From Sulfuritalea sp. (GTDB lineage: Bacteria > Pseudomonadota > Gammaproteobacteria > Burkholderiales > Rhodocyclaceae): a stretch of DNA of 64,000 bases. The position numbers and the translations under genes were made by a program. The notes beneath the pieces are model-generated. The model was not told the origin of the DNA. It made no database searches and saw only the letters and a program-made list of their open reading frames with translations. The stretch lies in NCBI GenBank assembly GCA_030651305.1, contig JAUSCI010000073.1:5155-69154 (forward strand). Direction: 5' to 3'. Shown here piece by piece: positions 1,400 through 48,110 of the stretch (its first letter is position 1; every line of letters begins with the position of its first letter).

Positions 1400-3517
1400 C
1401 TATTCGGCCACGGCGGCGGGCGCCGCCGGTGCTGCAGCGATGGCCTTCATCGACAGCCGCACACGCCCCTTGTCGTCGGTCTCGATGACCTTGACCTTCA
1501 CTATCTGGCCTTCCTTGAGGTAATCGGCGACGGCATTCACCCGCTCGTTGGCGATCTGCGAAATGTGCAGCAGGCCATCCTTGCCCGGCAGCAGGCTGAC
1601 GATGGCGCCAAAATCCAGCAGGCGCAGCACCGTGCCTTCGTAGATGCGACCGACTTCGACTTCGGCGGTGATGTCTTCGATGCGCTTCTTGGCTACTTGC
1701 GCGGCATCGGCATTGACCGAGGAAATGGTGATCGAGCCGTCGTCTTCGATATCGATCACGCAACCGGTTTCTTCGGTCAGCGCACGGATCACGGCGCCGC
1801 CCTTGCCGATCACGTCACGAATCTTTTCCGGGTTGATCTTGATGTGGATCATGCGCGGCGCGAAGGTGGACACTTCTTCGCGATGACCGGTCATGGAGGC
1901 CTTCATTATTTCCAGGATATGCAAACGCGCTTCCTTGGCCTGGGCCAGCGCCACCTGCATGATTTCCTTGGTGATGCCCTGAATCTTGATGTCCATTTGC
2001 AGGGCGGTGATGCCGTTTTCGGTGCCGGCCACCTTGAAGTCCATGTCGCCGAGGTGATCCTCGTCGCCCAGAATGTCGGTCAGCACGGCAAAGCGCGGGC
2101 CGTCCTTGATCAGGCCCATGGCGATGCCCGCCACGTGCGCCTTGAGCGGTACGCCGGCATCCATCAGGGCCAGCGATCCGCCGCAGACGGAAGCCATCGA
2201 CGACGAACCGTTCGACTCGGTGATTTCGGAGACGATGCGCATCGAGTAGCCAAAGTCCTCCGGCGAGGGCAGCACTGCCAGCAGTGCGCGCTTGGCGAGG
2301 CGACCATGGCCGATTTCGCGGCGCTTCGGCGTACCGACGCGGCCTGTCTCGCCGGTGGCATAGGGAGGCATGTTGTAGTGAAGCATGAAGCGATCGCGAT
2401 ACTCGCCCTGCAGCGCGTCGATGATCTGCTCGTCGCGCCCGGTGCCGAGCGTGGCGACCACCATTGCCTGCGTTTCGCCGCGCGTGAACAACGCCGAACC
2501 GTGAGTACGCGGCAGGACGCCGTTGCGGATGACAATCGGGCGCACGGTGCGCGTATCGCGGCCGTCGATGCGCGGTTCGCCGTTGAGAATCTGGCTGCGG
2601 ACAATCTTCGCTTCCAGATCGAATACGGTATTGCCGACGAGGTTGGAGTCCGGTGCGTTCTCGATACCTTCAGTCAGCGCCGCAATGGTCTTCTTGGTGA
2701 TTTCGCGGGTCTTGACGGTGCGGGCCTGCTTGCTGGTGATGCGGTAGGCCTCGCGCAGTTCGGCCTCGGCCAGTTCGGCCACCTTCGCGATCAGCGGCTC
2801 GTTCTTGGCCGGCGGCTGCCAGTCCCATTCGGGTTTGCCGGCAACTTCCACCAGTTCGTTGATGGCCTTGATCGCGGCCTGCATCTGGTCGTGGCCAAAC
2901 ACCACGGCGCCCAGCATGATTTCTTCGGAAAGCTGTTGCGCCTCGGACTCGACCATCAGCACGGCGCCTTCGGTACCGGCAACCACCAGATTCAGTTGCG
3001 CGCTTTCCAGTTGGGTCTTGGTCGGGCACAGCACGTACTTGCCATCGATGTAGCCGACACGGGCGGCACCGATCGGGCCGCTGAACGGAATGCCGGAAAT
3101 CGCCATCGCGGCCGATGCGCCGAGCATCGCCGGAATATCCGGATCGATTTCCGGGTTGCACGACATCACGGTGCACACCACCTGTACTTCATTGTAGAAA
3201 GCGTCGGGAAACAGCGGGCGCAGCGGACGATCGATCAGGCGGCAGGTGAGAATTTCCTTCTCGGACGGACGTCCTTCGCGCTTGAAGAAGCCTCCGGGGA
3301 TGCGGCCGGCGGCGTAGGAGCGCTCCTGATAATCGACGGTCAGCGGGAAAAAATCCTGTCCCGGCTTGGCGTTCCGTGCGCCGACCACGGTGGCCAACAC
3401 GACAGTGTCATCCATGGTGACCATGACGGCACCACCCGCCTGGCGGGCGATTTCGGCTGTTTCAAGGGTAACCGTATGGTCACCGTAGGCAAAACTCTTC
3501 TTGATTGGATTCAGCAC
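1400..3517 (-). CDS. pnp: Polyribonucleotide nucleotidyltransferase (PNPase)
   Basis: Two RNase PH domains ([22 protein letters not shown]), KH and S1 domains. Start placed at GTG 3517 behind an AAAGGA SD rather than TTG 3535. Confidence 0.97.
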
Positions 3518-3536
3518 AATATTTCCTTTCGGCAAT

Positions 3537-3573
3537 AAATAAAAGCCGGCACAGCCATCATGGCTGTGCCGGC
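3537..3573 (-). terminator. Terminator/attenuator-like hairpin between rpsO and pnp
   Basis: 13-bp stem GCCGGCACAGCCA / TGGCTGTGCCGGC with a 3-nt loop, then TTTTATTT on the minus strand. Confidence 0.65.
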
Positions 3574-3653
3574 CTGTTCAGCATGCCTGCGCAGTATCTG
3601 AAGCAAAGCGCATAGCGCGTTTTGGATAAGCTGGGGCGGCGCCTGATAAAAAA

Positions 3654-3923
3654 CTACTTGCGCAGGCCAAGACGCTCGATCAGCGAGCGATAGCCGTCGA
3701 CATTCCTGCGTTTCAGGTAATCCAGCATCTTGCGGCGCTGGCTGACCATCATGAGCAGGCCGCGACGTGAATGGTGATCCTTGGTATGCGCCTTGAAATG
3801 ACCCGTCAAGTCGTTGATGCGGGCGGTGAGAAGCGCCACCTGGACTTCGGGGGAGCCGGTGTCACCCTGCGCGCGCTGGTAGTCGGTGACGATCTTGGCT
3901 TTGTCGGTTGTGGAAATTGCCAT
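3654..3923 (-). CDS. rpsO: 30S ribosomal protein S15
   Basis: [13 protein letters not shown]...[10 protein letters not shown] motif; 89 aa; position upstream of pnp. Confidence 0.98.
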
Positions 3924-46001: not shown

Positions 46002-47405
46002 TCAGTTTCTGTAGGACGAGCCTGAAGCGAAATTCTCAAACTTGGCGTATTCCGCGATGAAGGTCAGCGGCACCATGCCGACCGGGCCATTGCGGTGCTT
46101 GCCGATGTTCGCCTCGGCCTTGCCCTTGTCCTGCGTGTCGGGCTTGTAGTACTCCTCCCGATACATCATCACGATGATGTCGGCGTCCTGTTCGATGGCG
46201 CCCGACTCGCGCAGATCGCTCATCAGCGGGCGCTTATCGTTGCGTTCCTCGACCTTGCGCGAGAGCTGTGACAGGGCGACGATCGGCACCTGCAATTCCT
46301 TGGCCAGCGCCTTGATCGAGCGCGATATCTCGGAAATTTCCGTGGCGCGGTTTTCACCATCGCGGTTGGAACTCATCAACTGCAGGTAGTCGATGATGAT
46401 CAGGCCGAGCTTGCCGAACTGCCGGTGCAGACGCCGGGCGCGGGCGCGCAGGTCGGTCGAGTTGATGGCGCCGGTCTCGTCGATATGGATCGGCGCTTCG
46501 TGCAGTTTGCCCAGCGCCACGGTCATGCGATCCCACTCGTCATCGGTCAGGCGACCGGTGCGCAGCTTGCTCTGGTCGATGCGGGCGACCGACGAAAGGA
46601 AACGCGTGGCGATCTGCGGACCGGACATTTCCAGGCTGAAGATCGCCACCGGCAGCCTCAGTTCGACGCCGACATGCTCGGCGATGTTGAGCGCAAATGC
46701 GGTCTTGCCCATGGACGGGCGGCCGGCGACGACAATCATGTCGCCCGGCTGCAGGCCCGAGGTCATGCGATCGAGGTCGACGAAGCCCGTGGCTACGCCG
46801 GTAATGTCGGATTGGCTGTCGCGCGCCAGCAGGGATTCCATGCGCTCGACGACTTCACCCAGCAAGGGCTGAATCGCGACGAATCCATTGTTGCTGCGAT
46901 TGCCTGCTTCGGCGATCTGGAAGATGCGCTGCTCGGCATCGTCGAGCAGCGTCTTGACATCGCGCCCGGCGGGATTCAGCGCATTGCCGGCGATTTCGTC
47001 ACCCACGGTGACCAACTGACGCAGGATGGCGCGCTCGCGCACGATTTCGGCGTAGCGGCGAATGTTTGCCGCCGAGGGCGTGGCGTTGGCGATCTCGCCG
47101 AGATAGCCGAGGCCGCCGGTCTGATCGACTTCGTTCGACTGTTCGATGGATTCATACACCGTCACCACATCGGCGGGCCGACCCTGCTGTATCAGTTTGC
47201 CGATGTGGCGAAAAATCCGGCGGTGGTCATCACGATAGAAATCGGTTTCGCGCACCACATCGCCAATGCGGTCCCAGGCCACGTTGTCGATCAGCAGGCC
47301 GCCGATCAGCGACTGTTCTGCCTCGATGGAATGCGGGGGAAGTTTGAGCGCGGCGACTTGTGAATCGACCGGCTGCGGGGGATTAAAGGCACGGACCTGG
47401 GCCAT
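46002..47405 (-). CDS. dnaB: Replicative DNA helicase
   Basis: LPPHSIEAEQS, AGRPSMGKT (Walker A), IDYLQLM, LSQLSR and DLRESGAIEQDAD. Confidence 0.97.
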   Translation of the reverse strand: MAQVRAFNPPQPVDSQVAALKLPPHSIEAEQSLIGGLLIDNVAWDRIGDVVRETDFYRDDHRRIFRHIGKLIQQGRPADVVTVYESIEQSNEVDQTGGLGYLGEIANATPSAANIRRYAEIVRERAILRQLVTVGDEIAGNALNPAGRDVKTLLDDAEQRIFQIAEAGNRSNNGFVAIQPLLGEVVERMESLLARDSQSDITGVATGFVDLDRMTSGLQPGDMIVVAGRPSMGKTAFALNIAEHVGVELRLPVAIFSLEMSGPQIATRFLSSVARIDQSKLRTGRLTDDEWDRMTVALGKLHEAPIHIDETGAINSTDLRARARRLHRQFGKLGLIIIDYLQLMSSNRDGENRATEISEISRSIKALAKELQVPIVALSQLSRKVEERNDKRPLMSDLRESGAIEQDADIIVMMYREEYYKPDTQDKGKAEANIGKHRNGPVGMVPLTFIAEYAKFENFASGSSYRN

Positions 47406-47429
47406 CGCTGTCTCCGAATTGAAGCGCAG

Positions 47430-47510
47430 AGTCTACCCCGCACGGCAGCGGATGGTAAGTGGACAAGCTGTGGAAATGTTGTGGAGAAACTGTGTAAATG
47501 CAGTGGAGCA
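47430..47510 (-). promoter_or_regulatory. Predicted dnaB promoter with an adjacent phased array of five DnaA-box-like 9-mers
   Basis: -10 TAGACT (47430-35), 17 bp, -35 TTACCA (47453-58). Plus-strand AGTGGACAA, TGTGGAAAT, TGTGGAGAA, TGTGTAAAT and AGTGGAGCA start at 47458, 47469, 47480, 47491 and 47502. Confidence 0.6.
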
Positions 47511-47533
47511 AGTTCACGCACCGCAATACAAAA

Positions 47534-47560
47534 CGGGCCGCTGATTTTGTCAGCGGCCCG
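47534..47560. terminator. Terminator after rplI (T-runs on both sides)
   Basis: 11-bp stem CGGGCCGCTGA / TCAGCGGCCCG with a 5-nt loop. Confidence 0.8.
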
Positions 47561-47584
47561 CCTTTTTTTGGCTTGCAGTCGGGC

Positions 47585-48034
47585 TTACTGTTCGCCGAGC
47601 ACGGACACCGTCACCGTCACCACGACGTCGGTATGCAGAGCAATCTGGACCGGCGTATCGCCAACAGCCTTGAGCGGACCGTCGGGCAGGCGGATCGCCG
47701 ACTTCTCGATCTGGAAACCCTGTGCGGCAATCGCCTCGGCGATGTCGTGAGCCGACACGGACCCGAACAGGTGGCCATCAATGCCGGTCTTGCGGGTAAT
47801 TTGCAGCATCAGCCCTTCCAGCTTGTCGGCTTGGGCCTGGGCGGCAGCAACCACCTCGGCGTGGATACGTTCGAGTTCAGCGCGCTTTTCCTCGAATACC
47901 TTGCGGTTGGCTTCCGTCGCGCGCTTGGCCTTGCCTTGCGGAATCAGGAAATTGCGGGCATAGCCGTCCTTGACCTTGACCACATCGCCGAGGCCACCGA
48001 GGTTCACGACTTTTTCCATCAGAATGATTTGCAT
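47585..48034 (-). CDS. rplI: 50S ribosomal protein L9
   Basis: [34 protein letters not shown]; GHLFGSV. Confidence 0.97.
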
Positions 48035-48110
48035 GGGATTCTCCTTCGCAGGGCCGCCCCAAGAAGGAGCAGCCAAAAATATGGAGCGGGCACAGCCCGC
48101 GAACAACTGT

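Follow-up and report, generated by a model that had tools for sequence, protein, structure and literature searches.

A helically phased array of five DnaA-box-like sites abutting the dnaB promoter of a Sulfuritalea species, a probable DnaA operator

DnaA is best known as the protein that opens the replication origin; as a transcription factor it has, to our knowledge, been documented in only a few model species. Here we describe five DnaA-box-like 9-mers that lie one helical turn apart between rplI and dnaB, the replicative helicase gene, in a Sulfuritalea sp. of the Rhodocyclaceae, a family of importance to denitrifying and wastewater communities. The array was first picked out by a sequence-only reading of a 64,000-nucleotide stretch of this genome (C9:5155-69154 of a 3.9-Mb assembly, hereafter the window, whose coordinates we use unless a contig is named), and we compared it with the rest of the genome, with relatives and with the order. 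The arrangement of the sites and the way they are conserved suggest that DnaA most likely tunes helicase supply through the dnaB promoter.

The closest described systems concern DnaA at dnaB itself. Hicks et al. (2020, PMC7738170) report DnaA binding in the region upstream of dnaB in both M. tuberculosis and M. smegmatis (listed as "Rv0057, upstream of dnaB"), and the same source describes a mycobacterial DnaA mutant with weaker binding that under-expresses dnaB, implying positive control. Similarly, the DnaA regulon of Caulobacter crescentus includes dnaB, with predicted boxes (Hottes 2005, as cited in PMC8203912). These accounts overturn the statement of the sequence-only reading that no description of DnaA at dnaB was known. 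At the E. coli nrdAB and dnaA promoters, according to the same review, whether DnaA activates or represses depends on its nucleotide state and on its level (PMC8203912). The geometry of the array also has a precedent: E. coli oriC carries two low-affinity arrays, R5M-tau2-I1-I2 and C3-C2-I3-C1 (Rozgaja et al. 2011, cited in PMC6070618), and the proposal that a 9-mer plus a 2-bp spacing is the geometry of these arrays agrees with that account (PMC6070618). The core of the DnaA-reactivating sequences (DARS), finally, consists of three boxes, of which boxes I and II point in opposite directions and are 5 bp apart (PMC6868365). Since Caulobacter and mycobacteria already provide cases of DnaA at dnaB, the locus described here opens no new category; we found no description in the literature, however, of a phased array at a betaproteobacterial dnaB.

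On the plus strand, the five 9-mers AGTGGACAA, TGTGGAAAT, TGTGGAGAA, TGTGTAAAT and AGTGGAGCA start at 47458, 47469, 47480, 47491 and 47502, all in a common orientation and with a step of exactly 11 bp, both in a repeat search and with Tandem Repeats Finder (TRF), which reproduces the span of 47458-47510 claimed for them. Read on the minus strand, the sense of dnaB, the array is TGCTCCACT-gc-ATTTACACA-gt-TTCTCCACA-ac-ATTTCCACA-gc-TTGTCCACT. We scored the units, numbered U1 to U5 from the promoter outward, against the DnaA-box consensus TTWTNCACA on the dnaB strand, which is TGTGNAWAA on the plus strand. The proximal unit U1 (TTGTCCACT, 47458-47466) has two mismatches; U2 (ATTTCCACA, 47469-47477), U3 (TTCTCCACA, 47480-47488) and U4 (ATTTACACA, 47491-47499) have one each, in agreement with what had been said of the middle three; and the distal unit U5 (TGCTCCACT, 47502-47510) is the weakest, with three. 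A weaker sixth unit had been suspected at 47447. This turned out to be the -35 hexamer together with the promoter spacer, which is poorly conserved in relatives, and the stretch is not kept as a box.

Nothing else in the genome resembles this arrangement. Counting both strands of the whole assembly, we found 65 perfect and 2013 one-mismatch boxes, and three sites with at most one mismatch at 11-bp spacing occur at the dnaB locus only, as do five sites whose mismatches total no more than 8, whatever the spacing between 9 and 33. All 11-bp tandem pairs of good boxes in the genome lie inside the array, and a search of the genome with a position weight matrix built from its units found no second array. 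A box with at most one mismatch occurs at 2.7e-4 per position, and about 1.5e-4 such triples are expected per genome; a chance origin of the array is excluded. We rejected a repeated or mobile element, given that the array is unique in the genome. We also rejected an RNA element: no Rfam family came close to threshold, and the folding of the region's transcript is not better than that of shuffled sequences (z = 0.48).

The array stands directly against a predicted promoter. In the direction of dnaB, the 179-bp rplI-dnaB spacer holds in turn a terminator hairpin, a block TTGCGGTGCGTGAA, the five units, TTACCA-17 nt-TAGACT, a leader that contains GGAGA, and finally the ATG. The predicted -35 hexamer TTACCA (47453-47458, like the -10 on the minus strand) matches TTGACA at four of six positions and is kept as TTA(C/T)CA in the genus, and the predicted -10 hexamer TAGACT (47430-47435) matches TATAAT at four of six. 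The last base of U1 is the first base of the -35, so the two overlap by one base, and the placement of the array between the rplI terminator and this promoter, touching its -35, holds. A simple sigma-70 scan did not call TTACCA-17-TAGACT as a promoter because it scores 8 of 12; we accepted it instead on its conservation. The promoter is thus weak (8/12 matches) yet conserved, which suits dependence on an activator. We infer that dnaB transcription would start near 47423, about 7 nt past the -10.

We searched for DnaB in 30 relatives and cut out the rplI-dnaB spacers, of which those from 16 same-genus species were comparable (DnaB 93-98% identical). Fifteen of the 16 keep all five units together with the promoter (-35, spacer length of 17 nt and -10), free of indels; the sixteenth (L020) has the three proximal units only. 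Averaged over pairs of same-genus sequences, identity is 0.95 at box positions 2, 4 and 6-9, 0.81 at positions 1 and 3, and falls to 0.67 at position 5 and 0.66 in the 2-bp spacers; in the promoter it is 0.57 in the spacer, whose length of 17 nt is constant, and 0.96 in the -10. Because the freest box column, position 5, is the N of TTWTNCACA, this footprint reproduces the specificity of the DnaA box. Unit by unit, U1 is TTGTNCACT across the genus and U4 is likewise variable at position 5 only (A or G), U2 (ATTTCCACA) is invariant in the 15 of 15 species analysed, and U5 retains only T(C/G)CAC(T/C). The stretch between terminator and array takes variable GC-rich hairpin inserts in the genus, unlike the indel-free array.

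These columns bear on the view that the array works with no dedicated protein at all, its T-tracts, phased every 11 bp, forming curved, UP-element-like DNA that boosts a weak promoter. Upstream DNA curvature can stimulate promoters, and each unit does contain a run of TTT/ATTT, and these runs are in helical phase immediately upstream of the -35. The strongest conservation, however, falls on C6-A7-C8 and not on the T-runs, and curvature needs neither CAC cores, nor a single orientation, nor the consensus DnaA boxes seen in relatives (below). We therefore regard intrinsic curvature as a very improbable explanation.

The DnaB of this organism is closest among named records to that of a Rhodocyclaceae metagenome-assembled genome (97% identity), with Methyloversatilis at 81%. 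Three other genera at about 80% DnaB identity have four to six phased units each, among them the near-consensus boxes TTATCCACG, CTATCCACA and TAATCCACA. In two of these three (L035 and L037) rplI is not upstream of dnaB and the array is still there, and thus the array travels with dnaB. Units in other genera are often of consensus grade (for example TTATCCACA/C/G and CTATCCACA); the U3 homologue in particular is often TTATCCAC(A/C/G) or CTATCCACA.

On the scale of the family, we located dnaB in 148 of 151 genomes and fetched 80 upstream regions, 50 from loci with DnaB at least 71% identical and 30 from loci below that value. The 50 closer loci carry a mean of 3.1 forward boxes each, compared to 0.24 reverse boxes, and the spacings between forward boxes peak sharply at 11, 22, 33, 44 and 55 bp. 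Chains of at least three phased boxes occur at 17 of the 50, and in none of 200 shuffles per locus. The array signal was not found at the 30 family loci with DnaB below 71% identity. Among 78 dnaB loci from many phyla, at least two forward boxes were found only at the four Rhodocyclaceae-type loci, and the array was not found at the dnaB loci of Paraburkholderia, Undibacterium and Achromobacter. The comparison of spacers thus bears out the 11-bp phase expected in relatives, which is kept in the genus and in a subclade of the Rhodocyclaceae. Moreover, the phase is tied to the promoter: at about 36 loci from other genera, boxes start 30-31, 42, 53, 64, 75 and 86 nt upstream of a conserved TA(G/A/C)ACT -10. 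In all, forward boxes fall on this 11-bp lattice in about 45 further genera of the Rhodocyclaceae. In the genome studied here, U1 starts 31 nt upstream of the start of the -10, and the lattice position of U2 (42 nt) is often filled in the other genera. The fixed 11-bp register with the -10 means that the lattice is anchored on the promoter.

We also searched whole genomes with a strict pattern, TNCACW-N5-TNCACW-N5-TNCAC, using the reversed pattern as control. The strict pattern matches 23 of the 151 Rhodocyclaceae genomes, and 13 of the matches lie directly upstream of dnaB; the reversed-pattern control gave about 17 matches. One more match is probably at dnaB, but dnaB itself went undetected there. 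The above-chance signal in the family therefore appears to lie nearly all at dnaB. Together, the comparisons support the view that the units of the array behave evolutionarily like DnaA boxes.

The same comparisons bear on whether another repeat-binding regulator reads the array, for instance an OmpR/PhoB-type response regulator, or an MraZ-like protein on GTGG cores. OmpR/PhoB-type regulators bind direct repeats with a 10-11-bp period beside the -35 or in place of it. Direct repeats one helical turn apart that abut a weak -35 are typical of winged-helix response regulators, and the geometry here is compatible with them; the plus strand carries GTGGA/GTGGAG cores, and no unit of the array is a perfect DnaA consensus box. 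Against such a regulator, the columns under conservation coincide exactly with those of TTWTNCACA, T2 and T4 among them, and position 5 is the free column; perfect TTATCCACA stands at homologous units in relatives; and the target is a replication gene with DnaA precedents. An MraZ operator in particular was rejected. In relatives, GTG is followed by G, T, C or A, which a GTGGG site would not tolerate, and the 11-bp period and the motif both differ from those of the organism's own mraZ promoter. There, in the upstream region of mraZ (about 270 bp) on contig C20 (gene near 269500-269966, minus strand), GTGGG occurs three times with an exact 10-bp period just after a TTGACC-type promoter, and three GTGGG at this period after a promoter is the classical layout of an MraZ operator. 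We consider a regulator other than DnaA unlikely.

We conclude, with fairly high confidence, that the array serves the replication initiator DnaA as a DNA-level operator and forms part of the dnaB promoter. We infer that DnaA is the binder, and a DnaA oligomer probably controls the promoter by activating it. In the mechanism that we propose, DnaA would bind first at the better central boxes U2-U4, each with one mismatch, and spread cooperatively to the weak outer boxes through head-to-tail oligomerization of its AAA+ domains. We propose nucleation on U2-U4 because the best boxes are central and the weak promoter-side U1 touches the -35, and cooperative spreading because head-to-tail boxes with 2-bp gaps are the oriC geometry for oligomers of the DnaA AAA+ domain; this geometry also makes a dependence on ATP-DnaA plausible. 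If transcription starts about 7 nt after the -10, the protomers would be centred near -39, -50, -61, -72 and -83 on one face of the helix, with the distal three positions near those of classical class I activators. Contacts from U1 and U2 would then recruit or stabilize RNA polymerase, such that dnaB transcription would rise with the level of DnaA and the supply of helicase would be coupled to initiation potential. At very high occupancy, partial occlusion of the -35 is possible, which would give biphasic control as at E. coli nrdAB.

Several points weigh against this account of the array as a DnaA operator. First, none of the five boxes is a perfect match to the consensus, and the central ones deviate at position 1 or 3. 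Second, in many other genera U1 keeps TTGT(T/C)C and has lost the CAC core, and thus its conservation there may have a reason other than DnaA. Third, the promoter and the start site are predictions from conservation, and a site abutting the -35 could repress instead of activate; we favor positive control since it agrees with the mycobacterial and Caulobacter precedents. Finally, the same-genus species are close relatives (DnaB 93-98% identical), although neighbouring non-functional columns have clearly diverged among them.

The DnaA of the organism itself lends indirect support to DnaA as the binder. The native protein is encoded on contig C43, and its AAA+ domain scores the same as that of a complete genome of the same genus. 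Its domain IV aligns to the E. coli structure 1J1V with E = 9e-33, and the contact motifs ARPRQ and GGRDHTTVxHA are identical. The spacer between this dnaA and dnaN holds the canonical boxes TGTGGATAA and TTATCCACA beside an AT-rich stretch and is likely to be oriC. We noted that the assembly contains two full-length dnaA genes, 56% identical to each other, one on C43 (dnaA-dnaN, about 2275-3678) and one on C79 (rpmH-dnaA, about 11.9-13.4 kb). Seven relatives that we checked, four of them of the same genus, have one full-length dnaA each, and the C43 copy matches those; C79 is therefore probably a contaminant contig. The CheckM-type contamination of the assembly is 3.4%, and C79 is not an outlier in tetranucleotide composition.

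DnaA might bind the array and chiefly manage the DnaA pool there, by titration, by datA-like ATP hydrolysis or by DARS-like nucleotide exchange. A head-to-tail array favours ATP-DnaA oligomers, as datA uses, and any cluster of boxes titrates some DnaA. As a sink, however, five weak sites are negligible compared to the 65 perfect and 2013 one-mismatch boxes genome-wide, and a pure sink would explain neither why the exact 11-bp register with the -10 is kept in dozens of genera nor why the array travels with dnaB. Kasho and Katayama are said to have found in 2013 that datA has an IHF-binding site among its essential DnaA boxes; neither WATCARNNNNTTR nor relaxed ATCA-N5-TT matches to the IHF consensus were found between 47406 and 47585 on either strand. 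Similarly, all five units share one orientation, whereas a DARS core needs boxes I and II opposed and 5 bp apart (PMC6868365). Thus, the datA/DARS-like alternative that had been raised for this site was rejected on the IHF site not found in that interval and on the missing inverted pair of boxes, and we judge management of the DnaA pool, in any of its forms, to be somewhat less likely still than another regulator.

The DARS-core geometry (a box, 3 bp, a perfect box, 5 bp, an inverted box) does occur at two separate loci of this genome, as TTACTCACAaagTTATCCACAgatttTGTGGGTAA and TGATCCACAaacTTATCCACAgattcTGTGGATAA, which we consider candidate DnaA-reactivating sequences. They lie at C47:99713-99747, in the hemE-priA spacer, and at C73:3723-3757, between xseA and an exbB/tolQ-like gene, with gene names taken from reading the translations of open reading frames (ORFs) only. 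At the first of these, the triplet is just upstream of the primosome gene priA.

We extended the strict-pattern search to the order to find where else such phased sites occur, and 41 of 301 genomes matched, compared to about 12 with the control. We fetched 30 strict-pattern loci from outside the Rhodocyclaceae and examined them at the level of sequence only; none of them lies at dnaB. Five of the loci outside the family adjoin dnaA, and L199 immediately precedes an ORF in which a DnaA N-terminal domain is present. Another five, from other families (L211, L212, L213, L221 and L222), lie directly upstream of a ribonucleotide reductase gene with an ATP-cone, which is probably nrdA, a name based on the ATP-cone domain only. 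The triplets at these genes (for example TTCACAaaTTATCCACAgcTTGTCCAC, around locus position 1500) stand beside NrdR-box-like palindromes (ACACTAGATGTAGTG), which suggests dual control of these probable nrdA genes by NrdR and DnaA in sister families. In the genome studied here, the only gene found for a ribonucleotide reductase large subunit (C32, upstream of 4957) has an NrdR-box-like palindrome, ACATACTATATCTAGTAG, and no array. The N-terminal ATP-cone region of the sister-family nrdA gave no tblastn match in that gene.

At one locus from another family (L227:1750-1900; G239:C6), the dnaA-dnaN spacer is built from perfect tandem TTATCCACAgg units, 4 + 8 in number, with an 11-bp period. The presence of this lattice at a predicted oriC argues that the 9+2 arrangement is a genuine DnaA-array geometry in the order. 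The tandem units at L227 lie in very AT-rich DNA, and the predicted origin is strikingly regular. Taken together, these loci give the impression of a recurrent module in the order, a phased DnaA triplet at the promoter of a replication-supply gene, with dnaB as its target in one subclade of the Rhodocyclaceae.

Such lattices raise the question of whether the dnaB array belongs to a replication origin, either secondary or remnant. Indeed, the 9+2 tandem lattice is the architecture of a predicted oriC in another family of the order, and several phased triples elsewhere in the order adjoin dnaA. At this locus, however, the signs of an origin are missing. GC skew is essentially negative over the 64-kb window, with a few weakly positive 2-kb bins, and the cumulative skew falls without a turning point, which excludes proximity to oriC, the check that had been suggested for this site. 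In the complete genome of the same genus, dnaA is at about position 1 and dnaB lies 1.54 Mb along the 3.8-Mb chromosome, and the native dnaA-dnaN spacer has its own cluster of boxes and AT-rich stretch. Since the flanks of the array are GC-rich (terminator and promoter spacer), it has no AT-rich unwinding element. We therefore rejected oriC on GC skew, distance from dnaA and the lack of an unwinding element, and an origin is the least probable of the explanations that we considered, hardly credible at this position.

Returning to the DnaA operator, a bolder form of it is possible, and we put it forward as a tentative and rather doubtful idea: the dnaB promoter of the Rhodocyclaceae subclade might be read by a DnaA filament and not by single molecules. 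The rigid lattice would then be a threshold sensor, in which the weak unit on the -35 side fills only at high ATP-DnaA. The module might also have been rewired in evolution, being found at nrdA and dnaA in sister families and at dnaB in this clade, where the reductase gene has neither the N-terminal ATP-cone region nor an array. If this were true, helicase synthesis would switch on as initiation potential peaks, and an oriC-type lattice of five to six units would have stayed locked with the -10 throughout the history of dozens of genera.

The genes around the array all lie on the minus strand, in the order rpsF, a priB-like SSB_1 gene, an 18-kDa ORF (rpsR), rplI and then dnaB. The cluster rpsF-priB-rpsR-rplI ends at 47585. 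Its last gene, rplI (47585-48037), encodes ribosomal protein L9 (150 aa, starting MQIILMEKV; Pfam Ribosomal_L9_N and Ribosomal_L9_C), and dnaB (46002-47405) encodes a helicase of 467 aa (Pfam DnaB_C, 1.3e-108; DnaB N-terminal domain, 1e-34). The Shine-Dalgarno sequence GGAGA of dnaB (47411-47415, minus strand) lies in a short conserved leader and is kept as CGGAGAC in the genus. The intrinsic terminator after rplI (47524-47570, minus strand) contains a GC-rich hairpin (47534-47560), conserved in the genus, and has T-runs on both strands.

Just upstream of U5 lies the block TTGCGGTGCGTGAA (47513-47526, minus strand; genus consensus TTGCRSTGCRnGAAwT), which is not a DnaA box and may be a site for a second factor. 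Its centre is quasi-palindromic (GCAGTGC / GCACTGC variants), and the block persists also in those same-genus species whose spacer has a variable GC-rich hairpin insert between it and the terminator. One such hairpin element, of about 40 bp (e.g., GTCCCGCCCGGGAACGGGCGGGACGGTATCCCCTGGTGGGA), is inserted between terminator and array in many species of the genus, among the relatives L005-L008, L011, L012, L017, L033 and L034; it is duplicated in L012 and absent from this genome. The element looks like a REP-like mobile repeat that respects the boundary of the array.

The dnaB locus offers a clean and deeply conserved betaproteobacterial case for DnaA as a transcription factor. Because box number, orientation, spacing and promoter register are all fixed, it is a convenient natural test bed, which could show whether DnaA controls promoters through the head-to-tail oligomer with which it opens the origin, and how the supply of helicase is matched to initiation.

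Set beside the known systems, the locus combines features of several. It shares with mycobacteria the same target, dnaB downstream of the rplI region, which in the mycobacterial report is one of five strongly DnaA-bound regions (PMC7738170); it differs in that mycobacteria are another phylum and that binding was demonstrated in that report by IDAP-seq and chromatin immunoprecipitation (ChIP), whereas the site here is known from its sequence. With Caulobacter it has in common predicted boxes upstream of dnaB, whose expression in that species follows the availability of DnaA (PMC8203912), although Caulobacter is an alphaproteobacterium. As at E. coli nrdAB and dnaA, boxes lie on or immediately upstream of the promoter of a replication-supply gene; in contrast, nrdAB has another target gene and three boxes instead of a five-unit 9+2 lattice. 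In its geometry the array comes closest to the oriC arrays of E. coli, where four to five same-orientation, off-consensus 9-mers with 2-bp gaps are filled cooperatively (PMC6070618). Unlike oriC, it lacks an unwinding element, a perfect anchor box and a skew turn, and it stands about 40% of the chromosome away from dnaA.

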